From an uncultured Candidatus Saccharibacteria bacterium (lineage in GTDB: Bacteria > Patescibacteriota > Minisyncoccia > Phycocordibacterales > PALSA-1337), in assembly GCA_964412585.1 (NCBI GenBank), contig CAYPPJ010000006.1, forward strand, positions 31 to 64,030: 64,000 nt of DNA. Direction: 5' to 3'. The notes beneath the pieces were generated by a model. The model made no database searches and was not told where the DNA came from. It saw only the letters and a program-made list of their open reading frames with translations. This document shows positions 5,052 to 59,490 of the stretch, one piece after another. Positions within the stretch are counted from its first letter, which is position 1. The number at the start of each line of letters is the position of its first letter. The translations under genes were made by a program, and so were the position numbers.

Positions 5052-6644
5052 TTATTCTTTCAGAAAACTTATAAACTCATTTTCTAGTTCAAAACTCAAT
5101 TCGCCCTGCTTAAGAGAATTCAACATTTCAATAGGCTTTTGGGAAGAAGATGCAGGCTTAGTAAATCCAAGGTATTTTTCTAAATCCGGGGTAAGTTTTT
5201 TAATGACTGACGTGTAGCTATTTTTGTTAGCAAATATATCACTATTTCTTTCTTTGTTATCAGGATTAGACTCGTCATCTATATCAAATAATACTTTATG
5301 CTTGATACCAAATTCACTACATAATGTCATAAAACGCGGAATATTATATTTTCCTCCACAATCGATAACGTAAATATTTAAACCAAGTCCCTTTTCAAAA
5401 ATTAAGTAATTCAGAAAGACTTTGTCTGTTGGGCCTTCGACTAATATGACCTCATCCACAAAAAACATGGTATTCCTGTCAGGATTCAACCATAGTATAA
5501 AATTGAAGACATCTTCTTCTAATTTCATGCCATCTAGAAATTCCTTACCTGCACGAAAAATTTCACTATGCCCATCCTTTCGAATTAATCTTGAAATACT
5601 TGCCAAGGCATCACTTTTTGTACTAATTAAGTTTGGGGAATGAGTACACAAAATGACTTGTCCAGTAGCCGATTGCGCAATCTTCTCCAAACCTATGAGC
5701 AATTTTCTTTCTTGATCATAATGCAATAAAGCCTCTGGTTCTTCATACAATAAAAGTGTAAAATTGCCATTAAAATTTTTCTTATCAGTTTTAACTCTCT
5801 TTCCTTCAATTTCTGCCCAAAGAAGCAATAAATTGTTAACTATTGCCCTCTGTGCCCCAGAGCCTAAAAACATTGGGTCTTCCTCTTGATTTGTCTCGTC
5901 AGAAATGAAACGCAGTTGAGAACCTGTCAAAACAATATCTTCTGGTGTTGGAGGTAACAATGTGATTTTGGTTCGTAAATTCCAAGAAGAAAGTTTTTTA
6001 GTTAAATCCTCTTCAATTTCATTAATGCTGTTTAAATTGCCACTATTTTTTACTGGACTCCTTAAATCTTGGGCAAAAGACTTTGTATTTTTAACAAGCT
6101 CTGTCCAGGAAGGTAATGATTCAAGGGTATCAGATATTATTCTGGTTAATAATTTCGTAAATATTGATGATTTTACCTGTTTAAGTTCATCAGAAAGACC
6201 TTTGACGGCAGGGACATAGATGATATTTCCTAACTTTCCAATTTGCACATTTTTCGCGCCAAAGAAATCCTCTTCTCGCTCTGTTATAATTCCATCACGA
6301 TTCTCAAAGCCATGAGGCTTACCTTTTAAATTATCCCTAGAAAAACGTTTAATTACTTTCAGTTTATTATCGGGTAACTTATAAAATTCAGGCAATTGAG
6401 AAAATTCTTCTTCACTTAAACAAAACTCGAGTGTTATTTCTATACTTGAATCAGCACCACATCCCCTAAAAAAATCTTCATTTGTAACATTATAATCGCC
6501 ATAAAAGGCTCTCAAAGCGTGTATTACGCACGATTTCCCTGCGTTATTTTGTCCAATAAGTGTCCAAACATCATCTTTTGGACCTGCAACTTTGACATCC
6601 TTCAAAGATCGAAAATTCTTAATTTCTACTGATAGTAATTTCAT
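5052..6644 (-). CDS. Class-1 OLD-family ATP-dependent endonuclease (N-terminal ABC-like ATPase plus C-terminal Toprim).
   Basis: IKNFRSL..LIGQNNAGKS Walker A, LLLYEEPEA Walker B, CTHSP H-loop, Toprim VILVEGPTDKVFL plus DIDDESNPDN acidic motif. Low GC relative to flanks by eye. Confidence 0.7.
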   Translation of the reverse strand: MKLLSVEIKNFRSLKDVKVAGPKDDVWTLIGQNNAGKSCVIHALRAFYGDYNVTNEDFFRGCGADSSIEITLEFCLSEEEFSQLPEFYKLPDNKLKVIKRFSRDNLKGKPHGFENRDGIITEREEDFFGAKNVQIGKLGNIIYVPAVKGLSDELKQVKSSIFTKLLTRIISDTLESLPSWTELVKNTKSFAQDLRSPVKNSGNLNSINEIEEDLTKKLSSWNLRTKITLLPPTPEDIVLTGSQLRFISDETNQEEDPMFLGSGAQRAIVNNLLLLWAEIEGKRVKTDKKNFNGNFTLLLYEEPEALLHYDQERKLLIGLEKIAQSATGQVILCTHSPNLISTKSDALASISRLIRKDGHSEIFRAGKEFLDGMKLEEDVFNFILWLNPDRNTMFFVDEVILVEGPTDKVFLNYLIFEKGLGLNIYVIDCGGKYNIPRFMTLCSEFGIKHKVLFDIDDESNPDNKERNSDIFANKNSYTSVIKKLTPDLEKYLGFTKPASSSQKPIEMLNSLKQGELSFELENEFISFLKE

Positions 6645-8549: not shown

Positions 8550-9008
8550 ATGAATAAAACAACTGAACTCCTCAACCTAATAAAATGGATGGCTATACAA
8601 GCTCAACTTCAGCTAGCCCCGCAATCTCAATTTCCTGAAAGGAAACAAATATGGTGGGCGTGTCTAGGACAAAATATCGGTATTGAAACAAACGGCAAAA
8701 ACTATCGTTTTGAAAGACCGGTATTGGTAATAAAAGCATTCAATGCGTGCGCGCTATTTGTCGCACCTCTCACAAGCACTCTAGGGACTCATCAATTTCT
8801 TATTGAATTTAACCACCTAGGACAAAAGAAATCAGTCAACGTGTCTCAATTGCGAACACTAAGTGCCAAAAGATTTACAAAAAAGATCTCCGACATGTCA
8901 GATGCTGATTTTGACCGCATTATTTCATCGATTCAGAAAATTGTCCTCAATAAACCTGAAACCCCGCAGAGCGGGGTTTCTTTTGAGCTCCCTCACGAAG
9001 TGGAGTAA
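8550..9008 (+). CDS. PemK/MazF/Kid-family toxin-like protein, orphan.
   Basis: KQIWWACLG..G.E..G, RPVLVI, VAPLTS and SQLRTLS resemble Kid/PemK (GEIW, RPVLIV, VVPVTS, Q.RT.D). AT-rich. No antitoxin ORF upstream. Confidence 0.55.
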   Translation: MNKTTELLNLIKWMAIQAQLQLAPQSQFPERKQIWWACLGQNIGIETNGKNYRFERPVLVIKAFNACALFVAPLTSTLGTHQFLIEFNHLGQKKSVNVSQLRTLSAKRFTKKISDMSDADFDRIISSIQKIVLNKPETPQSGVSFELPHEVE

Positions 9009-9218: not shown

Positions 9219-10685
9219 ATGAGACAAAAACCAATGGATTGGTTCGCCCAGAGGATTATTGAACCTCGGGACGAAATCAAGGAACGAAACCACGAGGCGT
9301 CGAAAGGACTGATTGGCTTCAGCTTCTTCACCTTGCTCGCATTCAAATCCCCTCTTCCCGCAAAAATCGTAGCAGTTGCCTGGCCGGCCATCGGCCTCCT
9401 GGTGCTGTACATCCGCCTCGGTCTTGAGGCGAAACACTACAAGTCCAGCCGCTGGACTGAGTTCTTGATCGGGTGGAAATTATGGGCCGAGATGGTCATG
9501 GAGATCTATCTTTGGCCGCTCCAACTACTCTTCATCTTGATCGGCAGTCGAGATACATGCTCGTACCGAAACACACTCCGAACCGTCCGCGTTGACACCT
9601 TGATTGAAAAGCTTGGCAAAGTTGGCCACGCCTTCGATTCGGCAGAACGGATGTTCGGCGATGATGTAGACCATGCTGCAGAGCAAGGTCGCGCTATCGA
9701 GGAACTGCCAGAGCAAATGGTTTTGACGGCAAAAACGGGCGCAGTCTGCGGTGCCACAGTCATGACCATGGCGACCAGTGCGGCTTCAGCTGCATCACCG
9801 GTACCGGTCACACCTACCAACAGTATCAATGTCTCGGTCACCGGCTGGGCCACTGCTGTTGGAGATATTTCGGCACAAGGCAAGCCCAAAGGGAGTCTTG
9901 AGTACGCGCGAGCATTCGTCACAGTCTCGGATGAGACACTCCGTACCAGCTTCTTCACCGAACTGGCGCTGGACGCGTTTCAGACACCAACGAATCCCGA
10001 TGTTCTCAAACGCTTCTTCTTCACCTTCAATCTTGACGACAAGACAACGGTGAATGTCGGACGCATGTTTGTAGCTGGTGGCTGGATAGGCCCCGGGCCG
10101 ACAGACTTGGAGACTGTGGACTACTTCAGGTTTCCCTTCACCTTTCAGGGCTACGCTGCCCAGGTGGATGTGAGTCGAGGTCCTTGGCACTTCCTCGCAG
10201 ACGTGTCGGGTGTTACCGGACTCTCGTTTCTCGATGGTGGTCAATTCGACATCATTGAGCACAGCGGGCACCTGTCACGGTCATTCGGCTCGCCATATGA
10301 GCTCGGGCTGACATGGCAAGTGAGCGAGAAGTTTGCTCGCGTAGCGGTGACTGGCTCTGCCAATCCGCTGCCCTGGCTCACGACTCGCGGCATGTTCTAT
10401 TACGACCGCGAGGTCGGACAAGGTCAGCGCACCAGTACCATCGGATGTTATGGCTTCGCCAGCGTCCAGCCCTTCCATTCGATCCCGTGGCTCTCCGTTC
10501 ACGGTCAGGCAGATGACAAAATCGGCCTCGACCATCCAGAACAGGAACCACTGACGGTTACTATTGGTATGCGAGCAACGTTCAGCAAACGCCACTCGTT
10601 CATCATGGATTACCGTTCAAGTTACGGCTCCGCTCACGCAGGCGACTCCGACGGAGTCCGCATGGCGTGGCAGACGACGTTCTGA
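9219..10685 (+). CDS. Hypothetical membrane-associated protein in a high-GC block. N-terminal TM helices, beta-rich C-terminal half ending in a terminal Phe.
   Basis: Long ORF with hydrophobic N-terminal segments; no catalytic motifs recognised. Confidence 0.45.
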   Translation: MRQKPMDWFAQRIIEPRDEIKERNHEASKGLIGFSFFTLLAFKSPLPAKIVAVAWPAIGLLVLYIRLGLEAKHYKSSRWTEFLIGWKLWAEMVMEIYLWPLQLLFILIGSRDTCSYRNTLRTVRVDTLIEKLGKVGHAFDSAERMFGDDVDHAAEQGRAIEELPEQMVLTAKTGAVCGATVMTMATSAASAASPVPVTPTNSINVSVTGWATAVGDISAQGKPKGSLEYARAFVTVSDETLRTSFFTELALDAFQTPTNPDVLKRFFFTFNLDDKTTVNVGRMFVAGGWIGPGPTDLETVDYFRFPFTFQGYAAQVDVSRGPWHFLADVSGVTGLSFLDGGQFDIIEHSGHLSRSFGSPYELGLTWQVSEKFARVAVTGSANPLPWLTTRGMFYYDREVGQGQRTSTIGCYGFASVQPFHSIPWLSVHGQADDKIGLDHPEQEPLTVTIGMRATFSKRHSFIMDYRSSYGSAHAGDSDGVRMAWQTTF

Positions 10686-10790
10686 AGGTTTCCTACAATT
10701 CTTCGCAGGCGCATCGGCAACGATGCGCTTTTTTTATACAACAAAAAACCCACCATTCGGCGGGCTCTTTGTGCGCGATGCGCGGAGATA

Positions 10791-11303
10791 TTATTTGTTT
10801 TGAGACTGCTCAAAGGCGCTATAGACGCTAGCAGTATTCTTTGCTGAAAGCCCTGAATCAATGACAGCGATAGGTGATGTCGAACGTGTTGCCTGGCATT
10901 TTTCATTGGTAACTGTACATGCGATTTCAATCACAATATTCTGACCAATCTCAGTCTTTGATGGAACCCAGACCGCATCACCATCATTTTGGGTAAATGA
11001 AGCGATAGTACGGATGAGCTTGTAACTCACTGGATCTGAACTTTCTCGGCGGAGGATATTGATCGTGACTGTTGGCGAAGAATAATTTTGAGATGTCCAC
11101 TTGATATGCTGAACTTCGCCAACCTTGACGGTACCTGAGATTGATTCTACAAGTGCCAACGAAGCTCCACTCACGACAGGGGTCTGTGTTACAGGAGTGA
11201 CGGCGACATTTGTTGAGCTCGGAGAGGTCAATGCGGCGATGATAAGGATGACCGCAGCGACGATAACTGAAACAATCAGAGCCGTCTTAGGTGAAGATTT
11301 CAT
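10791..11303 (-). CDS. Hypothetical N-terminally anchored secreted protein.
   Basis: N-terminal TM LIVSVIVAAVILIIAAL followed by a Thr/Val-rich linker. Confidence 0.45.
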   Translation of the reverse strand: MKSSPKTALIVSVIVAAVILIIAALTSPSSTNVAVTPVTQTPVVSGASLALVESISGTVKVGEVQHIKWTSQNYSSPTVTINILRRESSDPVSYKLIRTIASFTQNDGDAVWVPSKTEIGQNIVIEIACTVTNEKCQATRSTSPIAVIDSGLSAKNTASVYSAFEQSQNK

Positions 11304-24111: not shown

Positions 24112-24810
24112 TTACCACCCCTTCACCTCCAGAGCCTTCTCAGCCGCTTGCTGTTCCGCCTCTTGTTTGGACTGCCCCGTCCCAGAAGCAACTTGGACAT
24201 CCTTGAGAAAAACCCCCAGAGTAAACTTTTTATCATGGTCCGGCCCAACTTCCTTGAGTGTCTTATAGGACGGCGTCACTCCTTCTTTTTCTTGTGCTTT
24301 CTCCTGAAAACGGCTTTTGGCATCTATCCACAATTTTTTGCTTATAATCTCCTCAATATCGATAACCTCGAGCACTCGCTCTGAAATAAAATTTGCGGCA
24401 GCATTGTATCCTTGATCCATATAGATAGCGCCGATAACTGCCTCCACGGCATTGGCGAGAATGATCGAACGCGCACGGCCCGTGTCCTTGGCTTCACCTT
24501 TTGAGAGTAAAATGAACTGATTGAGTCCTAGATGTTCAGCAACCTTGATCAAACTCATCGTATTTACTATTGCAGATCGGAATGCTGTAAGCTCGCCTTC
24601 CTGCTTTTTTGGATATTTGCGGAAGAGATAGCTGGTGACCACCAATTCCAACACCGCGTCACCGAGAAATTCGAGACGTTCGTTGTGCTCCAAGCCTGCG
24701 CCTTTATTTTCATTTAAAAAGGAACGGTGCGTGCACGCAGTCCGGAGTGTGGTGATATCGCGGAATTCCACCCCGATTTTTTTTGCTAATTTTTCTATTG
24801 TTTCAATCAT
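24112..24810 (-). CDS. rnc: Ribonuclease III.
   Basis: ERLEFLGDAVLELVV signature; C-terminal dsRBD. Confidence 0.9.
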   Translation of the reverse strand: MIETIEKLAKKIGVEFRDITTLRTACTHRSFLNENKGAGLEHNERLEFLGDAVLELVVTSYLFRKYPKKQEGELTAFRSAIVNTMSLIKVAEHLGLNQFILLSKGEAKDTGRARSIILANAVEAVIGAIYMDQGYNAAANFISERVLEVIDIEEIISKKLWIDAKSRFQEKAQEKEGVTPSYKTLKEVGPDHDKKFTLGVFLKDVQVASGTGQSKQEAEQQAAEKALEVKGW

Positions 24811-25732: not shown

Positions 25733-25853
25733 GATTTAGATAAAGAACAATTGTATGTACGCTATAGATTTATGATTCAAGATTTAATCCTATATGTATA
25801 ATAGCTTAAACCCTCAATCTTATACCCAGACTCTCAAGTATCAGCGAACCGAA

Positions 25854-26072
25854 CTATTTCTTGGTAGCCTCTGCCTTTTTTGCTTTCTTCGCAACCTTGG
25901 CTGCAAGATTGAGGACCTTGCGACCATTATACCATCCACAGTTCATGCAGAGAGTATGGCTCTTGTGAGCAACACCACAGTTTCCGCACTTTGAAACACG
26001 CCCTGCAGTGAGTGCGTGATGTGAACGGCGGTTGCCGGTGTGACTCCTTGTTGAACGCATGCGTACTACCAT
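25854..26072 (-). CDS. rpmF: 50S ribosomal protein L32 (zinc-ribbon form).
   Basis: MRSTRSHTGNRRSHHALT N-terminus, CGNCG...CMNCG. Confidence 0.75.
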   Translation of the reverse strand: MVVRMRSTRSHTGNRRSHHALTAGRVSKCGNCGVAHKSHTLCMNCGWYNGRKVLNLAAKVAKKAKKAEATKK

Positions 26073-36163: not shown

Positions 36164-36408
36164 GGGTTAATTATACCCTATTGACGAGTGGCCAAGAAAT
36201 GGGGTTTGGGGACAAATAGCTACAATTACTTTGTTAGAAGCGAAGATGGGATCGGTGTAAGGGATTCGAAGCTTACAGCTTCGGTACAGGTTTCGTATTT
36301 TTTCGGAGCACAGCTCCTCAAAAATATACTCAACCTCTTCGAATCCCTCACGCAAAGCACGCAGGTGCTTTGCCACTCTCCGTCATTCGCTCGTTTCACT
36401 CGCTCAGT

Positions 36409-36494
36409 GCGGAGGGTGAGGGATTCGAACCCTCGATACCTTGCGGTATACACGCTTTCCAAGCGTGCGCACTAGACCACTATGCGAACCCTCC
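36409..36494 (-). tRNA. tRNA-Ser(GGA) with a long variable arm.
   Basis: Reverse complement gives GGAGGGT...CACGC-TTGGAAA-GCGTG...extra arm...GGTTCGAATCCC...ACCCTCCG. Confidence 0.75.
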
Positions 36495-42961: not shown

Positions 42962-43059
42962 AATTTTAAGAAAGAGATTAGTAATGAGTAACTAGTAATT
43001 AGAATAGTCGCAAATGTCGCCAGTGCTTTTCTAGTTACTAATTACTGATTACTAGTTAC

Positions 43060-43365
43060 TTATTTTATTACTGCTAATATCTCGCTTTCACGCACAAGAT
43101 AATATTCTTCGCCATCAACACTGACTTTGTCTCCCCATTGAAAAATAACTTTATCTCCAACCTTGACCGTAAGTGGAATCTTTTTACCTTCTTCAATACG
43201 ACCTGGTCCGACAGCAACTACTTCACCTCGCTTTCCATTTTTTTCTTCATTCACTGTGACAGGAATAATAATGCCTGATGAGGTCTTTTTTTCCTTATCA
43301 TCAGAGTGCTCGCGAATAAGTACGCGGTCCTGAAGTGGTTGTATCTTTTTTGAGATGTCTTTCAT
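43060..43365 (-). CDS. groS: Co-chaperonin GroES.
   Basis: IQPLQDRVLI...GIIIP...GEVVAVGPGR...VKVGDKV pattern; internal Met start chosen. Confidence 0.85.
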   Translation of the reverse strand: MKDISKKIQPLQDRVLIREHSDDKEKKTSSGIIIPVTVNEEKNGKRGEVVAVGPGRIEEGKKIPLTVKVGDKVIFQWGDKVSVDGEEYYLVRESEILAVIK

Positions 43366-44202: not shown

Positions 44203-44424
44203 ATGAAGTCTCTCCTCCCGTATATCCAGATAATCCTGTCCGTTCTTATTGTTGCTGCGATTCTCTTGCAACGTACTGGTGCACAGGTTGGCGGCGCATT
44301 CGGTGGATCCGATAACTTTAGCTCTGCGTTCCATACCCGCCGCGGATTTGAGAAAGGACTCTTCATATTCAGCATCATCATCGCTATCCTGTTCGCAGTC
44401 TCTGCTCTGCTCAACTTGATCTAA
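44203..44424 (+). CDS. secG: Preprotein translocase subunit SecG.
   Basis: Two TM helices with the LLQ..G..GGAFGGS...RRG.EK loop pattern; about 74 aa. Confidence 0.65.
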   Translation: MKSLLPYIQIILSVLIVAAILLQRTGAQVGGAFGGSDNFSSAFHTRRGFEKGLFIFSIIIAILFAVSALLNLI

Positions 44425-44550
44425 TCACAGAAATTCGGAATTCTGAATTCTTGTCGAAATCGTAATACACATCTCGCTTATATTATTTTACAGAATGTAC
44501 GTATTTGAAAGTATATAGAATTTAGAATTCCGTGTTTCTCTCTTAACATC

Positions 44551-46337: not shown

Positions 46338-48386
46338 ATGAACCCTATTCAACCAAACAATAACCAACCCCCACGACCTCCACGAGACAGGAACTTCAAG
46401 TTCCAGCGTCGCCCGCACCAAGGTCACACGCGTACACTGCGCACTGATACATCAGGTGCGGCTACTTCGAACAAACCTGTCTTTCATCACGACCACAAGG
46501 GACACTCCCACGCGCCAGTGAGCACACAAGCTGCCAATGGTCATCGCGTCGTCCTCGGCCGTGGTGCTCACAAACATCCAGGAGCCGTCAAACATATTGC
46601 CGGCGCGCGCATGGATATTATTCGTCCCGACGCCGCAAAACCAATGCGCCGCCATGGTCCCGCAAAACCTATGGTGAAACGCGAGGGAGACGTCGTCCCC
46701 GCACTCGCTCCAGACGCTATCCGTATCATCCCACTAGGTGGTGTCGAAGAGATCGGCAAGAACATGACCGCTATCCAATATGGTGACGACATCGTCGTTG
46801 TTGATATTGGCTTCCAGTTTAAAGACGACGATACACCTGGTATCGACTTTATCCTGCCAAACACCAAGTATCTCGAGGAACGTCAGGACAAGATTAGAGC
46901 TGTTCTCATTACCCACGGTCACCTTGACCACATCGGTGGTATTCCCTATATCATGCCCCGTATTGGCAATCCGCCAGTCTATACCCGCCTTCTCACCTCG
47001 ATTTTGATCCAAAAGCGCCAAGAGGAATTTCCTCATGTGCCAAAGATTGATATGAAAGTTGTTGAAAAAAATGAAACAATCACTATTGGTAAACTCAAGG
47101 TCAAATTCTTTGCGGTAACCCACACCATCCCCGATGCTATGGGTGTCATCATAGAAACCCCGTATGGATCAATCGTCCATACCGGTGACCTCAAGCTCGA
47201 CCATGATGATGGTGTTCCTACTGAACAAGAAGTCGCAGAGTATGACCGTGCATTCAAAAATGAAAAAGTATTGATGCTCATGGCCGACTCGACCAACGTT
47301 GAGAACCCAGGCTTCTCATTGCCTGAAAAGACTGTGCACAAGAATCTCGAACTTATTATCCAGAATATGACTGGTCGTCTCATCATTGCAACATTCTCTT
47401 CTCTCTTGGAGCGCTTGCTCAAGATTGTTGAGTTCTCGGAAAAATATGGCAAGAAAGTTGTCGTCGAAGGGCGCAGTCTCAAACAGAATATCGAGATCTG
47501 TAAGGGTCTTGGACTGGTCAAAGCAAAGAAAGAAACCTTCATCACATCTGATGATATCGACAATTACCCGCCTGATCGTATTGTCATCCTTTCGACTGGT
47601 GCACAGGCAAACGACTTTTCTGCGTTGGTACGCATGTCCAACAAGACTCATGCCAAAATCAAGCTCACCCCACGCGACACCGTTGTTCTATCATCATCAG
47701 TCATTCCGGGAAATGAACGTCCAATCCAGAAGTTGAAAGACAATATCTCGCGCCAAGGAGCAAAAATTCTCCACTATCGCATTGCCGATGTCCACTCATC
47801 AGGACACGCCAATCGTGATGAGACAGCGTGGATCCATCGTGCTATCAAGCCGAAATTCTTTATGCCGCTTCACGGATATCACTACATGCTTCGCGCCCAC
47901 TGTGACATCGCAAAGGACGCCAATGGTCTCGCCGAGTCAGATGTGGTTATCCCTGATAACGGTTCTATTATTGAAATCCAGGCAGGTGGTACCAAACTGG
48001 TTAAACTCAAAGAAAAGGCAGCCTCAGGCCTGGTGCTTGTCGATGGATTCTCTGTCGGTGATGTGCAGGATGTGGTCATTCGTGACCGTCAGGCACTGGC
48101 TCAAGATGGTATCTTCATCATCTTCGGCATCCTCAATGCCCAGACCGGCAAGCTCAAAAAGTCTCCGGACATCATCTCGCGCGGTTTCGTCTATCTTCGC
48201 GAATCACAGGATCTTCTCCACGAAGTACGCCTCTTGATCAAAGATACAGTCGAAAAATCTACTCGCGGTATGAATCCTATCAACGTTGATTTCATCAAAG
48301 ACAATGTGACAGATAACGTCTCGAAGTTTTTGATGCAGAAGACTGCAAAGAGGCCGATGGTGATACCGGTGTTGCTCACGATTTAA
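46338..48386 (+). CDS. rnj: Ribonuclease J with a roughly 120-aa low-complexity N-terminal extension.
   Basis: Metallo-beta-lactamase motif LITHGHLDHIGG, beta-CASP and C-terminal domain. Confidence 0.85.
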   Translation: MNPIQPNNNQPPRPPRDRNFKFQRRPHQGHTRTLRTDTSGAATSNKPVFHHDHKGHSHAPVSTQAANGHRVVLGRGAHKHPGAVKHIAGARMDIIRPDAAKPMRRHGPAKPMVKREGDVVPALAPDAIRIIPLGGVEEIGKNMTAIQYGDDIVVVDIGFQFKDDDTPGIDFILPNTKYLEERQDKIRAVLITHGHLDHIGGIPYIMPRIGNPPVYTRLLTSILIQKRQEEFPHVPKIDMKVVEKNETITIGKLKVKFFAVTHTIPDAMGVIIETPYGSIVHTGDLKLDHDDGVPTEQEVAEYDRAFKNEKVLMLMADSTNVENPGFSLPEKTVHKNLELIIQNMTGRLIIATFSSLLERLLKIVEFSEKYGKKVVVEGRSLKQNIEICKGLGLVKAKKETFITSDDIDNYPPDRIVILSTGAQANDFSALVRMSNKTHAKIKLTPRDTVVLSSSVIPGNERPIQKLKDNISRQGAKILHYRIADVHSSGHANRDETAWIHRAIKPKFFMPLHGYHYMLRAHCDIAKDANGLAESDVVIPDNGSIIEIQAGGTKLVKLKEKAASGLVLVDGFSVGDVQDVVIRDRQALAQDGIFIIFGILNAQTGKLKKSPDIISRGFVYLRESQDLLHEVRLLIKDTVEKSTRGMNPINVDFIKDNVTDNVSKFLMQKTAKRPMVIPVLLTI

Positions 48387-48420
48387 GACACACGAGCCAA
48401 AGGGGTGCACATGTATGTTC

Positions 48421-48491
48421 GGATACGCGCGTTCGGCCGTGCTCGGCCGCCGCTATTCTCGGCCTCATCGGCCTGTGAAATGTATCCTCAC
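48421..48491. repeat. GC-rich palindromic MITE/RPE-like element, copy A, intergenic.
   Basis: About 85-90 percent identical by hand alignment to 56818..56890; imperfect TIR TCGGATAC/GTATCCTC; GC-rich core CGGCC..GGCCG. Confidence 0.65.
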
Positions 48492-48668
48492 ACACATGCG
48501 CGCCCCTTTGGCGTGCTTCCTTAAACTGAGCAGAACCCCTCCACTCCAACAGAACTGCGCAGCGATAGGGTTTTCGAACAACAACATAAAGTCACAGCCG
48601 TACTCCGCGTACCTCCGTCTTTTCATGTTGTTGTGAGGAAACCTCTGGCGCGGAGCAGTTCGGCAACA

Positions 48669-50021
48669 CTACAACCCCTGCAACGGATCAATCATAGTTC
48701 GTTGGATGTTGTCTGCTTTTGCAATCACACTATTACCATACGAAGCAATGAGAGACGAGGCGCTACAGGATTTGCCAGAATAGTACTTGCAAGCTGCGTT
48801 TCGCTCTGATGAATAGGTGCCACCTGAAGCTCCTAGGTCTCCCAAATAGATTGATGAGGCCATGAACGCATGCGATGGATTCCATGGATCAGGAATACCT
48901 GAGATGCCTAGATTGGCCGCAATACGATCCTCAAATAGTACCCACGTTGAAGCAATAAACTGCGCAGGACCCATCGCACCACCCCAGCCGACTGATTGAG
49001 GACATGAAACGACCTGCTTCATCGGATCTCCTCCGAGTTTTTTCACAATATCAATAAATGGTTCCACATCACGCCCCGGCTTCATAACTTTTGCAACATA
49101 AGAACCAGTTTTTTTACTGATACCTTCACCTGTTTGTGTATTGGTCAGGTAGCATGCGCCGACATTTGCTCCCAACGCGGACTCTTGGGTCAGAATGGCT
49201 AATACGAAGGCTGGTCTAACGCCTGTCTTTGCAGCAGCTGCCTGCGCATACTTGAGCGCATCGCCAAATGGAATTGGATTGGAGTCACGCAACTGGAACA
49301 ATGCGGCACGTATCTGGGAGGCACGTGCGCGCTTCTCAGCAAGAACAGCTGAATACGCTTTTTCATTGCCTTTGCTTGCGGCTAAGAGACGCTGTTTCTC
49401 AGCCTCATTTGCCTTAATACTCTTTTCTTCTTGCTGGATAATATAACGAGCATCTGTCTCTGCGTTTTTGCGTTTATCAAGCGTACTTTTTTCTGCCTCA
49501 GTCTCTGACTTATCCGATCGGATCCGTTCAAAGGTAGTCTTGAGACCCTCTTGCACTGATTGGAACGAATCAAGATCTGTAAAAAATCCAGTCAGCGTCG
49601 TCTGAGACAAAAGCATTTCAGGCAGTGTATATGTCCCCGCCTCATTGGTCTTGCGCATAATCTGTGCCAAGGTATCTCGTCCACGATCAATACGATCTTC
49701 CAGTTTCCCAATATATACCTCTTTATTTTTTATATCTTTTCCGAGGCTTTCAATAAGCAAATTTTTTGCCTTGATGTTGAGCTGAGCAACTTTGATTTTT
49801 GCCGACAACACGGAAATATCTTTTTGCAATGACGAACTCTGTCCCTGGGCTGAAGCAAGGTCTTTTTCAGCCTGTTTCTGGTCGGCTTCAACCTGTGCCA
49901 ATTCACGTTCTAGTTGTGCTTTTTGTTCAGGAGTAAGAACCTGGGCATGTAGAGGTGCAAAAAATGCCATAAGTGACAATATTAAAACCGCCAGGATGTA
50001 GATTCGTTGCCTGATGTTCAT
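48669..50021 (-). CDS. Secreted coiled-coil protein with a C-terminal lysozyme-like (lytic transglycosylase-type) peptidoglycan hydrolase domain.
   Basis: Signal/TM N-terminus, long heptad-rich region, C-terminal AFVLAILTQESALG motif with a catalytic-Glu context. Confidence 0.5.
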   Translation of the reverse strand: MNIRQRIYILAVLILSLMAFFAPLHAQVLTPEQKAQLERELAQVEADQKQAEKDLASAQGQSSSLQKDISVLSAKIKVAQLNIKAKNLLIESLGKDIKNKEVYIGKLEDRIDRGRDTLAQIMRKTNEAGTYTLPEMLLSQTTLTGFFTDLDSFQSVQEGLKTTFERIRSDKSETEAEKSTLDKRKNAETDARYIIQQEEKSIKANEAEKQRLLAASKGNEKAYSAVLAEKRARASQIRAALFQLRDSNPIPFGDALKYAQAAAAKTGVRPAFVLAILTQESALGANVGACYLTNTQTGEGISKKTGSYVAKVMKPGRDVEPFIDIVKKLGGDPMKQVVSCPQSVGWGGAMGPAQFIASTWVLFEDRIAANLGISGIPDPWNPSHAFMASSIYLGDLGASGGTYSSERNAACKYYSGKSCSASSLIASYGNSVIAKADNIQRTMIDPLQGL

Positions 50022-50086
50022 GTATGGTAAGTATAGCAAAAAGCGCACCGACGTGCGCCTTTTGTGATGACGTATGATGTGGTGAA

Positions 50087-50778: not shown

Positions 50779-51735
50779 CTATCTTACACTAATTGGTGGA
50801 AAAAGCAACCCGCGAGCCATGCGAGCGGAGCCGGGGTCGTATGACACCAACCCGCGAGCCATGCGAGCGGAGCCGTCCTCCAGGGTGAGGGCAACCCGCG
50901 AGCCATGCGAGGCAGGCTGGGGTTGCATGGCACCAACCACGTGTTCTGGGATACCAGCAAGATAAATCTCGTTAAGTTGCGATAGTGTTAGTGGCGTCTG
51001 AAACACTCCAACATCATCAATCATTCCTTGAAAAAAGAATATCCCTGCATATGCGTACCCAATCCTCGTAAACTGGGGTTGTGGTCCACAGGTATATGCG
51101 GGGACCCCGGCAGCAGTTACATCCCTTCCATTCACATACAAGGTCGCTTTTGTTCCCTCGACTATGATTGCGACATGCTGCCACTTATTGAGACTCAACA
51201 CACCGGTATTGCTAGAAAATGTGAGCGATTCACAAACATATTGGATACCAGCATTTGCATTTATACTAAAACCAGTATTACCTCCTCCTGTCCCCATGAA
51301 GCCGCGTACACCAGAAAACAACGTCGGGTATATCCACGCCATATACGTAAACGAGACCGGCGATGGGTAAACGGATGGAGGATTTGGGTTGATATCAACA
51401 AAGCTTGAAGACCCGTTAAAACTCAACGCATATCCAGTACCTGATGGCGTCGTTGCAACATATCCGTATGGTGACACCATACTTGTTGGCGATCCGTGCC
51501 GCTTGTATATAGACGCGTCTAGTGCCTGACCTGACCCCGTATTAAAATCATACCAACCAAATGCTGTAAGCGACAATAATCTATATACAGCCGATGAAAA
51601 AGATTGGCCTGCGGAGATCTGGGCTTTGTCTCGAACACCACTCAGTGCAACAAGCACCACTGACGAGAGCATGCTAATAATGGAAATCACCACCAGAAGC
51701 TCAATCAATGTGAAGCCTGTAGTGTATCGTTTCAT
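50779..51735 (-). CDS. Type IV pilin-like protein with a LamG/concanavalin-like domain and a C-terminal GSARMARGL tandem repeat, paralog 1 of 3.
   Basis: Prepilin N-terminus GFTLIELLVVISIISML; WQHVAIIVEGTKATLYVNG LamG-like motif; C-terminus encoded by a 3 x 43-bp DNA tandem repeat. Confidence 0.6.
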   Translation of the reverse strand: MKRYTTGFTLIELLVVISIISMLSSVVLVALSGVRDKAQISAGQSFSSAVYRLLSLTAFGWYDFNTGSGQALDASIYKRHGSPTSMVSPYGYVATTPSGTGYALSFNGSSSFVDINPNPPSVYPSPVSFTYMAWIYPTLFSGVRGFMGTGGGNTGFSINANAGIQYVCESLTFSSNTGVLSLNKWQHVAIIVEGTKATLYVNGRDVTAAGVPAYTCGPQPQFTRIGYAYAGIFFFQGMIDDVGVFQTPLTLSQLNEIYLAGIPEHVVGAMQPQPASHGSRVALTLEDGSARMARGLVSYDPGSARMARGLLFPPISVR

Positions 51736-51818
51736 TGAGTATTAAAATCAAACGCACGTAAACTTATCGCTCATATACAAGAGTAAATGCTGCGTTGTGG
51801 CGAATTTTCATCACAGCA

Positions 51819-52619
51819 TTATTGTAGCGCAAGTTGATGATTATTTCGACCTTCTGCATATATTGCCCGCACCTCCATAGCGGTCAATGATTCGGCAAAA
51901 ATCTGCACGTCGTCAATCAGGCCTTTAAATTTATAATTATTTGTCATGCCATTACCAATGGTAAAATCTTGTAACTGAAACAGGCTATTGGAAGTTGCGA
52001 CACTGCCTATCAATTTACCATCTATGTACATTGAGAGTTGACCGGATTTGGTGTCAAAATTGCAAAAAATATGATGCCATTTACTATCATAGATAAGAGC
52101 ATTGGGAACTGCGACACCAAATTGCTGCCAACATGTTGTGTTCGTGCCATTGTGATATATTTGCCGTCCACTACCATCATTATTAAATACAAGTAAATAT
52201 TCATACGATACGCCCGAATCGAGCGCGGCATTGTTTCGGTTAACCCAAAGTGAATATGCATAACTGGCATTTGAAAGTGTACGTGGTATTGATGGAGTAT
52301 ACGTTAGACGATTCACCTGATTCTGGGCATCAAAAGCTGAACCGGCGGAAAAGCTCGAAACGCGACCAATCGATACTGCTGTCGTAAAATTGTTCGATTG
52401 ATCAAGAGGTGCACCTGAGCCCTCATTGAAGTTCGCAAAGAAGATCATATCCGAACCAAGTTTATGATAGTTGTATGTCGCAAAAGTAACAATACTCCCT
52501 ATTCTTCCTTTATCACGCGCACCTTGTAGTGCCACCAACACAACTGATGACAACATGCTGATAATCGATAGGACCACCAGTAATTCAACAAGAGTAAAGG
52601 CTTTGGTATATCGTTTCAT
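51819..52619 (-). CDS. Type IV pilin-like protein with a LamG-like domain, paralog 2 of 3.
   Basis: AFTLVELLVVLSIISML N-terminus; WHHIFCNFDTKSGQLSMYIDG. Confidence 0.6.
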   Translation of the reverse strand: MKRYTKAFTLVELLVVLSIISMLSSVVLVALQGARDKGRIGSIVTFATYNYHKLGSDMIFFANFNEGSGAPLDQSNNFTTAVSIGRVSSFSAGSAFDAQNQVNRLTYTPSIPRTLSNASYAYSLWVNRNNAALDSGVSYEYLLVFNNDGSGRQIYHNGTNTTCWQQFGVAVPNALIYDSKWHHIFCNFDTKSGQLSMYIDGKLIGSVATSNSLFQLQDFTIGNGMTNNYKFKGLIDDVQIFAESLTAMEVRAIYAEGRNNHQLALQ

Positions 52620-52622
52620 TTT

Positions 52623-53498
52623 TTACTGTGCTTCAGCAAGTGTGTGTGTTGGTAAGCCGGCTGCATACATACGCTCAATGTCAGAAGCGGCGAGTGATTG
52701 CGTATATATAGCAACATCATCGATACCACCCTTGAAGGTCTGCGACGCACCATTGTTTAAGTAACCAAGACGGACACACGAAACACGCCTACTTACTCCC
52801 GTAGCACTGGCAAGCATAGGCCCTGGTATTTTTTTGCCATTTACGAAAAACGTGTGTGTGTTACTGGTTGCATTATATGTATAGGCCACATGAGTCCACT
52901 TTGCTTTTGGAATATAGCCGGTTCCGTCATACCACTGGTTGGATCCAACGCCACCATTATAAATGGCGACCTGAACTCCACTCGTAGCAGCAAACCAATA
53001 CAAGCTCGCTAAACGATTGTTCACATCACCACAGTTTGTCGTAATATCACTATAAAAAATCCATCCGTCAGCAGATGTCAAACTCGGCTTGACCCACATC
53101 GAGACTGTGTAGTTCGAAAATGTATTGTCGGGCATTTGTGCAGCAAGTGCAAACTGGCCTCCAACATTTGTACCAAGACCATCCAGTACGTACGATTGAC
53201 CAGCACCGTTTGGATTATCTGTCGTCGAGAAAGTTCCTGCTGCACCATTGGTTCCAACAAAAGCATATTGTGACTGATTGACTAGGGCACCTTTATTGAA
53301 GTCGGAATAGAGTATCGCATCTGCACCAAATGCATGATAGGTATAGCCAGAGAATCGTACCCCCGCACTTACCTGTCCTTTGTCTCTTGCCCCTTGGATA
53401 GCCACCAACACCACTGACGCAAGCATCGAGATAATCGACATAACCACTAGAAGTTCGACGAGAGTGAATGCTTTTGCATCAAGACGACGGTGGATCAT
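52623..53498 (-). CDS. Type IV pilin-like protein with a LamG-like domain, paralog 3 of 3.
   Basis: AFTLVELLVVMSIISML N-terminus; WTHVAYTYNATSNTHTFFVNG. Confidence 0.6.
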   Translation of the reverse strand: MIHRRLDAKAFTLVELLVVMSIISMLASVVLVAIQGARDKGQVSAGVRFSGYTYHAFGADAILYSDFNKGALVNQSQYAFVGTNGAAGTFSTTDNPNGAGQSYVLDGLGTNVGGQFALAAQMPDNTFSNYTVSMWVKPSLTSADGWIFYSDITTNCGDVNNRLASLYWFAATSGVQVAIYNGGVGSNQWYDGTGYIPKAKWTHVAYTYNATSNTHTFFVNGKKIPGPMLASATGVSRRVSCVRLGYLNNGASQTFKGGIDDVAIYTQSLAASDIERMYAAGLPTHTLAEAQ

Positions 53499-54903: not shown

Positions 54904-55899
54904 ATGTTCCACAGACCTCTTGACCTCATCACTATCGGCGACATCACCACCGATGCGTTCATCAAACTCAAAGAAGCAGAGGTGCACTGCAAGATTGACC
55001 ACAATACCTGCGAGATTTGCATGTCTTTTGGCGATAAAATCCCTTTTGAAAGTGCCAAGATCGTCAAGGGTGTAGGTAATGCGGCAAATGCAGCTGTTGC
55101 GGGTGCCCGACTCGGTCTGCGTACGGCACTGGTTGCAAACATTGGCACAGACCTCAATGGTCAGGAGTGCATGAATTCACTTCAGCACAATCATGTAGTC
55201 ACGTCATATATCAGGAAAAATGAAGGCAAGGCCACCAATTATCATTATGTCTTATGTTATGGCGCTGAGCGAACAATACTAGTCAATCATGTCGACTATG
55301 ACTACAAGCTGCCGAAATTACCAGAGGCACGATGGATCTATCTAACGTCATTGGCTTCAAATACTTTTCCATATCATATGGCAGTTGCCGACTATATCGA
55401 GGCTCACCCACAGATGCGTGTGGCTTTCCAACCTGGCACATTCCAAATGAAGCTTGGCTTTGATGAATTGAAACGTATCTACTCACGAACAGATGTTTTT
55501 ATCGTAAATGTCGAAGAAGCACAGCGCATGCTCAATACCGATTCACACGACGTAAAGTTACTAATGTCCAAGCTGCACAATTTTGGACCAAAGCTCATTC
55601 TGGTAACTGATGGTCCGAAAGGGGCCTATATGTTCGATGGCGACCACCACTATTTCATGCCAATCTATCCGGATCCAAAACCACCCACTCAGCGTACTGG
55701 ATGTGGCGACGCATTTGCCTCAACCTTCGTCTCCGCTCTCGCTATGGGTAAATCACCTCTAGAAGCCCTGACTTGGGCACCAGTCAATCCGATGTCAGTC
55801 GCACAGTTCGTTGGCGCACAAGAAGGGTTACTTACTCTCGAACAACTTGAATGGTGGCTTAAAAAAGCACCGGCAGATTATCGGGTCAAAGAGATTTAG
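54904..55899 (+). CDS. PfkB-family carbohydrate kinase.
   Basis: C-terminal TGCGDAFASTFV (DTxGAGD-type) motif; N-terminal GG-type pattern. Confidence 0.65.
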   Translation: MFHRPLDLITIGDITTDAFIKLKEAEVHCKIDHNTCEICMSFGDKIPFESAKIVKGVGNAANAAVAGARLGLRTALVANIGTDLNGQECMNSLQHNHVVTSYIRKNEGKATNYHYVLCYGAERTILVNHVDYDYKLPKLPEARWIYLTSLASNTFPYHMAVADYIEAHPQMRVAFQPGTFQMKLGFDELKRIYSRTDVFIVNVEEAQRMLNTDSHDVKLLMSKLHNFGPKLILVTDGPKGAYMFDGDHHYFMPIYPDPKPPTQRTGCGDAFASTFVSALAMGKSPLEALTWAPVNPMSVAQFVGAQEGLLTLEQLEWWLKKAPADYRVKEI

Positions 55900-57254
55900 G
55901 TATGCAATCGCCTGAATTCACCCCACTTCCCTTCAACAATCGCTTTTCGTGCATTTTTTACCAGATGCACCAAGAAATAGAGGTTGTGTATTGAAGTTAA
56001 TGTGGCGGCCAGCATTTCTTTGGCACGGAAAAGATGTGCAAGGTACGCCTTTGTATAGTTGGTGCAGGTATAACAACCACAGTCCTTTTCTATAGACGTA
56101 AAATCAGAGACAAACTGTGCATTGAATAAATTAATTCGGCCTCCTTTTATATATGCCGCTCCGTTGCGAGCGATACGTGTAGGCGCGACGCAATCGAAGG
56201 TGTCAATACCATTCTCAATTCCTAAAATGAGATCCTCGGGTTCGCCAATACCCAGGAGGTGACGTGGCTTATTCTCAGGCAATTCTTCGCAGACCCAGCC
56301 GACTGCGGTTCCAATGTCATCTTTATCAAATGAACCACCGATACCAAACCCGTCGAAATCCATTGAACCAATTGTTTTGGCAGAATGTCTACGTAGATCT
56401 TCGTGACGACCGCCCTGAACGATGCCAAATAAGGCGGACGTGCGAGACAAGATTTTTCTGGACACGCCGTCGACGCGTGGTCGCGTCGCGGCTGGTTCTC
56501 CCTCGCCTTCGCTCGGTCCGAAGCGTCCAGAAAAACTGTCTCCCACGTCCGCCTTTCGGTGTGCATCCAAACAACGCTGCGCCCAGGCATGAGTACGTTC
56601 AACAGCTGCTTTCTGCTTCTCATACGACTCCTGCGGTGAGAGACATTCATCAAATGCAAAAATAATGTCGGCACCAATGGCGTGCTGGATTTCAATGGAG
56701 CGTTCAGGAGTGAAGCGGTGCGTTGAACCATCGATGATTGATTTGAAGGTGACGCCATCATCGTCGATTTTGGCTAACTTAACGGACTTAGCTTCGTCGG
56801 ACATGAGTTCTGATACGCGCGTTCCGGCCTGCTGGCCGGCCGCTATGCTCGGCCTCAACGGCCTGTGCAATGTATCAGAACCCATGTCCTTCTTTGCTTC
56901 GTCCGTATCTGTTTGCCGTCCAATCTTCGATCCACCACCAAACGCCGGACCGAGTGAAAATGCTTGGAAGCCTCCCGAGTCCGTGAAGGTCGGGCCCTTC
57001 CAATTCATAAATTTTCCAAGACCTCCGGCTTTTTTGAGGACTTCAGTACCTGGTTGAAGATAGAGATGGTATGTATTCGCAAGAATGGCATCAGCCCCGA
57101 GTGAAGCGACCTGCTCTGGTGTAAGTGACTTTATCGTCGCTTTTGTGCCCACAGGAATAAAGGCGGGAGTCTGAATGTCCCCATGCGGTGTTTTGATGAC
57201 GCCTGCACGGCCCTTTGCGCCAGGAATCTTTGCTTCAATAGAAAATGAGAGCAT
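55896..57254 (-). CDS. tgt: Queuine tRNA-ribosyltransferase (Tgt) carrying two in-frame GC-rich insertions.
   Basis: FTDSGGFQ, catalytic-region motifs and the zinc-binding CxCxxC..H C-terminus; extra segments of about 55 and 40 aa. Confidence 0.8.
   Translation of the reverse strand: MLSFSIEAKIPGAKGRAGVIKTPHGDIQTPAFIPVGTKATIKSLTPEQVASLGADAILANTYHLYLQPGTEVLKKAGGLGKFMNWKGPTFTDSGGFQAFSLGPAFGGGSKIGRQTDTDEAKKDMGSDTLHRPLRPSIAAGQQAGTRVSELMSDEAKSVKLAKIDDDGVTFKSIIDGSTHRFTPERSIEIQHAIGADIIFAFDECLSPQESYEKQKAAVERTHAWAQRCLDAHRKADVGDSFSGRFGPSEGEGEPAATRPRVDGVSRKILSRTSALFGIVQGGRHEDLRRHSAKTIGSMDFDGFGIGGSFDKDDIGTAVGWVCEELPENKPRHLLGIGEPEDLILGIENGIDTFDCVAPTRIARNGAAYIKGGRINLFNAQFVSDFTSIEKDCGCYTCTNYTKAYLAHLFRAKEMLAATLTSIHNLYFLVHLVKNARKAIVEGKWGEFRRLHT
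56431..56555. repeat. GC-rich element flanked by a 12-bp perfect TIR, inserted in-frame in tgt.
   Basis: AAGGCGGACGTG ... CACGTCCGCCTT; internal palindrome CGACGCGTGGTCGCGTCG; GC far above the gene average. Confidence 0.55.
56818..56890. repeat. GC-rich palindromic MITE/RPE-like element, copy B, inserted in-frame in tgt.
   Basis: 9-bp perfect TIR TTCTGATAC/GTATCAGAA; about 85-90 percent identical by hand alignment to copy A. Confidence 0.65.
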
Positions 57255-59328: not shown

Positions 59329-59364
59329 TATTGTAGCAAGAAAATGCCCGGTCTTGAAGATGTA

Positions 59365-59472
59365 GGCCAGGAGGCGGGCATGGTGTTTCGATGGTAGGTA
59401 AAGTCACATTAATACTCCGCATACTGCCGTCTTTTACCGGACAGAGAAACACCATGCCCGCCTCCTGGCCCT
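59365..59472. repeat. Perfect 25-bp inverted repeat (stem) with a 58-nt loop in the MFS leader region.
   Basis: GGCCAGGAGGCGGGCATGGTGTTTC ... GAAACACCATGCCCGCCTCCTGGCC. Confidence 0.6.
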
Positions 59473-59490
59473 TACGTATCAATAGTCTAG

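Follow-up and report, generated by a model that had tools for sequence, protein, structure and literature searches.

A Y-shaped palindromic module downstream of rnj and in-frame in tgt of a Patescibacterium: a probable low-copy dispersed family

Introduction

Selfish palindromic repeats that lie in-frame in essential genes are textbook knowledge for Rickettsia. CPR bacteria are regarded as having streamlined genomes with little mobile DNA, and introns in their rRNA genes are frequent. Several other classes of hairpin-associated sequences are established. The REP/BIME sequences are imperfect palindromes of 20–40 nt, which are clustered and accompanied by a RAYT transposase. IS1397 and ISKpn1 insert in the loops of REP/BIME, and class C group II introns insert after terminator hairpins. 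The IVS of 23S and 16S rRNA are excised by RNase III, and perfect stems of 20–30 bp are of the type cleaved by this enzyme. The likeness to Rickettsia palindromic elements (RPEs) discussed below is drawn from a review (PMC10969869) and from the work of Ogata et al. (2000) on these elements. RPEs insert in-frame in genes, and Correia hairpins in transcripts are processed by RNase III (review PMC10969869). No description of selfish in-frame palindromic repeats in CPR was found in the searchable literature. Here, a palindromic repeat present twice in a 64-kb stretch of DNA from a Patescibacterium, hereafter the window, is described and compared with these systems.

Position and extent of the two copies

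In a repeat search within the window, the core of copy A (48417–48486, plus strand) aligned without gaps over 70 nt to the core of copy B inside tgt (56807–56876), with 86% identity. The first-pass annotation had reported a second copy after rnj, 85–90% identical to a stretch of tgt, and this copy is real. Both stretches lie where they had been placed, with small shifts: the string quoted for the intergenic copy spans 48421–48487, the annotated end being approximately 4 nt too far, and the tgt copy, annotated at 56818–56890, starts approximately 10 nt earlier. A 20-nt sub-pattern of A and B matched twice in the 64-kb window, compared with 0.01 matches expected by chance. The covariance model R1 (94 positions, 37 pairs) was matched end to end by copy A at 48408–48501 on the plus strand (101.6 bits, E = 7e-24) and by copy B at 56798–56891 on the plus strand, antisense to the tgt mRNA (105.5 bits). 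The reverse strand of copy A scored only 26.9 bits, and an unfiltered search of the whole window with R1 gave copies A and B and no third copy. The shared unit was ~76–94 nt long, roughly TTCGGATAC...GTATCCTCAC, and the G+C content of the element was ~60%, with ~47% for the window.

The core of copy A was composed of the inner part of stem P1, the P2 hairpin (CGGCCG-TGCT-CGGCCG), the junction CGCTAT, and the P3 hairpin (CTCGGCC-TCATC-GGCCTGTG). Outside P1, copy A had an additional 13-bp GC-rich stem. The whole palindrome around copy A (48396–48512) was formed by two arms of 31 nt (48396–48426 and 48482–48512) with 84% complementarity, and its outer locus-specific stem, GCCAAAGGGGTGC / GCGCCCCTTTGGC, began 10 nt past the rnj stop codon. 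The arms of copy B (56782–56816 and 56872–56906) were 35 nt long and 77% complementary. The terminal inverted repeat of the intergenic copy had been described as degenerate; its GGATAC/GTATCC repeat is in fact perfect. Copy A was no degenerate relic. It was structurally the more complete of the two, and its arms extended further than the well-paired ones in tgt.

Copy A lies in a 282-nt spacer (48387–48668) between two convergent genes. Directly upstream is rnj (46338–48386, plus strand), which encodes RNase J with the Pfam domains RNase_J_b_CASP, RNase_J_C, and Lactamase_B. The convergent SLT-like gene (48669–50048, minus strand) encodes a protein of 450–459 aa, whose orthologues showed weak or faint SLT_2 matches; the window protein itself gave no Pfam match at E ≤ 1e-5. 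The spacer also contains a second, unrelated long hairpin (48558–48655). In L128, from a related Patescibacterium, the rnj spacer was 12 nt long compared with 282 nt in the window, and the flanking C-termini were identical to those of the window at 30/30 (rnj) and 26/30 (SLT-like) residues. This was the only clean empty site, with neither hairpin nor module. The spacer of L135 was 79 nt long and element-free. No direct repeat flanking copy A was found.

An artefact of MDA or assembly was rejected, as the identical sequence was present in two JGI samples and covarying copies were present in independent assemblies. Palindromes created by assembly are also unlikely because related copies were found in independent JGI, NCBI, and Logan assemblies.

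Predicted fold and its conservation

Copies A and B folded into the same Y-shaped three-way junction on either strand, with z values from −5.5 to −9.3. The minimum free energies of the copy A palindrome were −68.4 (plus strand) and −76.2 kcal/mol (minus strand), with z values of −8.2 and −9.3, respectively. The Y was composed of the closing stem P1 and the two hairpins P2 and P3. The P2 hairpin had a GCG/CGC base, a 5–6-bp stem, and a UGCU-type loop, and was followed by the short junction CGCUAU and the P3 hairpin, CUCGGCC-UCAWC-GGCCUGUG.

When five sequences were compared, 89% of the cells were paired and both sides had changed in 21 of the 37 pairs, which was matched by none of 500 shuffles; slid controls gave 31–40%. 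When nine copies from seven contexts were aligned, with four rows fitted by the model so that the structure was somewhat favoured, 93% of the cells were paired and both sides had changed in 27/37 pairs (slid controls, 33–42%). The P2 stem alone occurred as CGGCCG/CGGCCG, CCGGCC/GGCCGG, TTTTTC/GAAAAA, CCGAC/GTCGG, and CTCGC/GCGAG. The sequence was conserved in P3 and the junctions; elsewhere pairing alone was kept.

These changes were followed into the protein encoded by the tgt copies. With the replacement of a GC-rich P2 by TTTTTC/GAAAAA in part of the copies, the Tgt peptide changed from AAGQQAG to GIFQQKN. Similarly, the change of P3 from GGCC/GGCC to GCGC/GCGC or GCGGC/GCCGC altered the peptide from RPLRPS to SAMSAS or SGLAAS. 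What is kept is therefore the nucleic-acid fold and not the peptide. The repeat is no simple terminal-repeat element but a structured module of ~76 nt in which pairing, and not terminal sequence, is conserved.

In the tgt copies, the extra non-Watson–Crick pairs were A·C in the orientation of the pattern, that is, G·U on the mRNA strand. Such mismatches numbered one or two per tgt copy with none of the opposite kind, which is suggestive as to the strand under selection, although the events are too few for a conclusion.

Known structured elements were also considered. Within the window, Rfam 15 gave nothing at the gathering threshold beyond five tRNAs, and around copy A at E ≤ 10 it gave generic miRNA-hairpin models only (best E, 0.04). 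A hammerhead ribozyme was rejected by inspection, the CUGAUGA/GAAA core being missing, and no Rfam family of other self-cleaving ribozymes was matched. An integron attC site was likewise rejected, since its R boxes (GTTRRRY) were lacking. No T-run or terminator-like site was present at 48396–48512 on either strand, which excluded an intrinsic terminator; the tails beyond the copy A stem read GTGCTTCC (plus strand) and TCGTGTGT (minus strand).

Copies outside the window

The first-pass annotation would have dropped the repeat family had nothing been found beyond the two loci. Further members were present in orthologues of tgt, behind secF and rplL, and in group I introns of 16S rRNA genes; full-length, structure-conserving copies occurred in at least five other genomes, in four other contexts. 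R1 was built from five copies, and the remaining copies scored 71–101 bits. Copy L102 lies directly after secF in an uncultured bacterium with 38% G+C. Copy L138 (2505–2690) lies immediately after rplL in assembly GCA_040384245.1, which also contains the tgt copy L127 (1522–1615) and is possibly a metagenome rather than a single genome. The L138 copy had been called as an ORF of 62 aa (P0122), which is spurious.

Three further copies were located in 16S rRNA genes, at L121 3650–3743, L122 11006–11099, and L125 1400–1493, in each case immediately upstream of the group I intron core matched by Rfam. The introns split these 16S genes within the 790-loop region, following GGGAUU or GGGAUUAGAUA. 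In each intron, the module was placed in the 5′ region, between the 5′ splice site and the core, on a stem of 15–20 bp. The 16S gene of L121 spans 3031 nt, which implies further insertions inside it.

A better-anchored pattern scan of metagenomes gave six loci, of which four were real, all within 16S rRNA genes. The pattern CTCGGCCTCANCGGCCTGTG matched at least 117 high-GC genomes by chance in the genome collection, and L102 was the only real copy among the matches listed; the scan was full of chance matches because the pattern is GC-rich. In viral contigs, chance matches only were obtained, none of them confirmed by R1. The copy number was low, with two copies in 64 kb and none in the ~60 kb of L134–L137 plus L129, which has a half-copy only. 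The three intergenic copies all started within ~10 nt of a stop codon and were sense to that gene, and the 16S intron copies were likewise in sense orientation. Sense orientation was seen in four of five independent loci, which is not significant.

The in-frame copy in tgt

The tgt gene (55896–57254, minus strand) encodes queuine tRNA-ribosyltransferase (452 aa, PF01702) and hosts copy B and a second in-frame palindrome (56430–56555), described below. Copy B was translated in-frame as KDMGSDTLHRPLRPSIAAGQQAGTRVSELMSD, and the tgt ORF was intact. The element-encoded peptide, of which DTLHRPLRPSIAAGQQAGTR is the candidate translation product, was 32 aa long, and the frame was kept in three orthologues with different peptides. 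The named relatives of Tgt are annotated as Candidatus Taylorbacteria, Parcubacteria, Paceibacterota, and Patescibacteria.

An alignment of Tgt with 20 orthologues had three variable insertion sites, which were occupied by different palindromes across the orthologues. The full element was present at the identical codon site in L126, L127, and L128, all from related Patescibacteria, so that the site was full in four genomes including the window. In L129, the element was reduced to the half that starts at the P2 loop, and in L134 and L137, P2 and one arm remained. L135 and L136 had other sequence at this site, and L139, the closest relative (82% identity), had six bases instead of the palindrome. 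Copy B was flanked by a 12-nt direct repeat, GACGAAGC(A/T)AAG, which matched at 11/12 positions and was placed asymmetrically, 3 nt from one arm and 1 nt from the other. The tgt insertion is an old one kept by compensatory change, with which selection on a host function would be equally compatible.

The AlphaFold model of Tgt had a mean pLDDT of 51 with disordered insert segments, which was too poor for placing the insertions on the protein surface. Peptide searches gave no in-frame copies outside tgt. A representative protein library yielded one unrelated repeat protein with the element peptide, and a query of concatenated peptides from five frames gave no matches. A profile of element-encoded peptides matched only P0122, the spurious ORF over the L138 copy. 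These are weak negatives because known positives, including known Tgt proteins in the five-frame search, were missed as well.

Other palindromes in the window

The second palindrome in tgt (126 nt, 56430–56555, at residues ~234–275) is unrelated to copy B, and its fold on the mRNA strand had an energy of ~−83 kcal/mol (z −10). Members of its family lie in-frame in tgt of L134 (~10610–10735), L135 (~8560–8690), and L136 (~6425–6555). In L126, a member is intergenic (1952–2075), between tgt and pfkB, whose stop codons overlap elsewhere. These palindromes make up a second RPE-like family. Core-less perfect in-frame palindromes were found at the second insertion site of tgt in L126 (~1300–1345, 21-bp arms, CAGGGAGGTCAGACCTTGATA/TATCAAGG...) and in L127 (~1865–1925, 28-bp arms), a site that in other orthologues is either empty or occupied by the element with its core. 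Hairpin matches were also obtained at the third variable site of Tgt.

A third family was represented by the hairpins 48558–48655, in the rnj spacer, and 59363–59480, which share a 37-nt apical core (TAAAGTCACAGCCGTACTCCGCGTACCTCCGTCTTTT) with 81% identity on unrelated stems. It is likewise built as the apex of a palindrome. The arms of hairpin 59363–59480 were perfect over 25 bp, and the spacer between the RRM and MFS genes that holds it was missing in L129, where these genes overlap. More inverted repeats of 15–34 nt were located at 42977–43064, 44418–44550, 36257–36429, 52046–52122, 11064–11130, and 25812–25914, several of them in spacers by groEL, an SBP_bac_5 gene, and a tRNA.

Three N_methyl/Laminin_G_3 (pseudopilin-like) paralogues span 50779–53498 on the minus strand, and the first of them contains three tandem repeats of 42–48 nt at 50805–50938 (GCAACCCGCGAGCCATGCGAGCGGAGCC...). 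An OLD-family AAA/TOPRIM nuclease gene was located at 5052–6644 (minus strand). An RNase III gene was located at 24112–24810 (minus strand); the enzyme is a candidate processor of long perfect hairpins if these are transcribed.

Exchange between loci

Core identity between copies A and B was 84%, compared with 61–75% between B and the orthologous tgt copies. The best match of the B core was the intron copy L121 (87%). When copy A was compared with the tgt copy of L128, the 5′ half was 100% identical and the 3′ half only 62%, which indicated a mosaic core. The cores of L127 tgt and L138 rplL were identical at 64/65 positions and were carried on different outer palindromes. The tgt orthologues L126 and L127 had a core identity of 90%. 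The arms of the tgt copies were 56–81% identical to each other and 11–52% identical to arms at other loci, so that the arms followed the locus. Paralogous copies were more alike than orthologous ones and cores were mosaic, which indicates copying or gene conversion between loci. Transposition, re-insertion, and gene conversion are the processes suggested for the module by this pattern.

All copies were placed at the apex of a longer, locus-specific palindrome of unrelated sequence. The paired length was extended by 13–22 bp in copy A, by ~10 bp in tgt, and by 15–20 bp in the 16S introns; the outer pairing comprised arms of ~31 bp in L138 and 27 bp in L102. Only the inner 10–20 nt of the arms were common to the copies. 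The apex position may have arisen in any of three ways: the module entered the loops of hairpins already present, the flank was duplicated in inverted form at insertion, or palindrome tips were converted. No consistent target-site duplication was found: there was none at A, L102, or L138, and a repeat at B only. Among the window ORFs scanned with Pfam, no transposase, RAYT, Y1, or homing endonuclease was found, nor was an autonomous partner element among the window ORFs scanned.

Proposed mode of spread and alternative explanations

Copy A probably belongs to a family of small non-coding palindromic modules that are dispersed, at low copy number, among Patescibacteria (CPR; Paceibacteria/Parcubacteria-like). 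With moderate confidence, the favoured reading is that the module is selfish and non-autonomous, RPE-like or MITE-like in action. The module would be copied between loci, or homogenised among the copies within a genome, and would land or survive only where the harm is small. Such low-harm sites would be those after stop codons (rnj, secF, and rplL), a peripheral helix in a group I intron of 16S rRNA, and a Tgt loop of variable sequence in which the module is in-frame and translated. Spread of the module was probably hairpin-directed. The folded form, whether a single-stranded DNA hairpin, a cruciform, or RNA, would be the substrate of a trans-acting factor, for which the conserved P3 and junction may be the recognition site. 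As each copy is carried on a different long locus-specific palindrome, the module would enter the hairpin apex or convert the apex of existing palindromes.

A host function at the RNA level was considered as the main alternative to a selfish module. The element would serve at the 3′ end or in processing (as a site for RNase III, for example), would stabilise the transcript, or would terminate transcription in both directions in a non-canonical way. It would be selected by the cell and would recur because it is useful, not because it is mobile. The compensatory changes that keep the structure across species fit this explanation, as do the three intergenic copies in sense orientation within ~10 nt of stop codons, the sense intron copies, and the G·U-type mismatches on the tgt mRNA strand. 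The RNase III gene encoded at 24112–24810 and the Correia precedent for RNase III cutting (PMC10969869) fit it also. However, the element is dispensable: L128 has its 12-nt rnj spacer without a hairpin, and four close orthologues of tgt have lost half of the copy or lack it. Copy B is antisense in a coding region, where a hairpin of −44 kcal/mol with RNase III cleavage would be costly, and neither a T-run after the stem nor an Rfam family was found. The orientation count of 4/5 loci was not significant. Moreover, a similarity of paralogues above that of orthologues, together with mosaic cores, is unexpected for independently selected sites. A host-functional RNA is considered unlikely.

An origin in 16S group I introns was judged less probable still. 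The module would come from, or be carried by, a peripheral domain of these introns, and the other copies would be debris of reverse splicing, homing, or recombination. It occupies the same position in three distinct 16S genes, past the 5′ splice site and ahead of the core recognised by Rfam, and the core of copy B is closest to an intron copy (L121). Nevertheless, no other intron sequence accompanied copies A, B, L102, and L138, and no Rfam match to a group I intron (RF00028) was obtained in the window or L102. The intron copies share the module alone with the others, not the arms, and the match to the intron core in L122 and L125 begins 3′ of the module and does not include it. These data are explained equally well if the module was inserted into a peripheral helix of the intron.

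A one-off duplication or conversion between tgt and the rnj spacer without a family, or a chance similarity of GC-rich sequence, had in its favour the two copies only in 64 kb and the many high-GC genomes matched by the P3 string alone, but is excluded as extremely improbable by the full-length copies in at least five other genomes and four other contexts, by the 0.01 matches expected for the shared 20-mer, and by the recurrence of a tgt and an intergenic copy, the latter at a different site, in GCA_040384245.1.

One conserved enzyme, Tgt, hosts two in-frame elements, and under the selfish reading an intron of 16S rRNA is invaded as well. The module is a concrete source for lineage-specific insertions in CPR proteins and rRNA genes, and a natural data set on the joint constraint of nucleic-acid pairing and protein coding. 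It also makes the recogniser of a conserved hairpin at the tips of unrelated palindromes a tractable question. Such hairpins can break assemblies, mislead gene callers (e.g. P0122), and confound homology-based annotation of CPR genomes.

A broader proposal can be put forward only tentatively. CPR genomes of the Paceibacteria type may hold an undescribed class of apex modules, with several families of ~60–120-nt branched cores that are exchanged between, or colonise, the tips of long locus-specific palindromes located behind stop codons, in helices of rRNA introns, and within protein-coding genes. These would be targeted to hairpins or cruciforms, or would duplicate their flanks, without a classical cut-and-paste transposase, and lineage-specific coding palindromes would arise as a by-product. 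If this were true, the insertions that set CPR proteins apart would derive in large part from such palindromes.

Relation to described repeat systems

REP/BIME sequences with RAYT were rejected as relatives, as the present element is a branched, unclustered unit of 94 nt and no Y1/RAYT was found among the window ORFs. In IS1397, ISKpn1, and class C group II introns, as in the module, a mobile sequence lies at or next to a pre-existing hairpin. These elements are autonomous and carry their own enzyme, whereas the module has 76–94 nt and no ORF, and may be targeted to loops; the empty site of L128 lacks the hairpin too. The rRNA IVS resemble the module as extended hairpins in RNA genes that are patchy in distribution and dispensable. 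They differ in that the module lies within a group I intron and not in a helix of the mature rRNA, and in that it is also found in coding and intergenic positions.

When compared with MITEs (Correia/NEMIS and ERIC), the module shares inverted-repeat ends, a non-autonomous nature, insertion polymorphism between strains, and transcript hairpins that RNase III could cut. The terminal inverted repeats were 31 nt in A and 35 nt in B (84% and 77%, respectively), and the unit of ~94 nt had no transposase ORF and was present in two copies in the window and two in GCA_040384245.1. Filled and empty sites were seen both at rnj (282 and 12 nt) and at tgt (full, partial, or empty). In contrast to MITEs, the conserved part is an internal branched core rather than the termini; a flanking direct repeat was seen at copy B only, and no related IS or transposase was seen among the window ORFs scanned. 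Of the earlier assignment to a dispersed MITE-like family and not to coincidence, the dispersed family is retained, whereas MITE-like applies only loosely, with no consistent target-site duplication and no transposase in the window.

The RPEs share more with the module. Both are small palindromic repeats (~100–150 bp) that encode no mover, occur in intergenic positions and in-frame in conserved protein genes that are left intact, as tgt is here, and are tolerated in RNA genes. Furthermore, both are found as several families per genome in the reduced genomes of host-dependent bacteria. The phylum is unrelated, the copy number seen here is much lower, and Tgt was the sole host protein obtained for this family in searches that also missed known positives. 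RPE families have a conserved sequence throughout, whereas the present family combines strong covariation of the pairs with outer stems that are specific to each locus. Since the organism is a Patescibacterium, sequence homology to RPEs is not expected, and the likeness is one of working and not of membership.

The hairworm mitochondria likewise contain long near-perfect inverted repeats in-frame in functional protein genes, with both coding and structure preserved. There, both arms encode conserved regions of the protein, whereas the palindromes in Tgt were inserted in variable loops in particular lineages only, and their cores are shared with intergenic copies. Among the systems compared, RPEs and the coding palindromes of hairworm mitochondria are the nearest analogues of the module.
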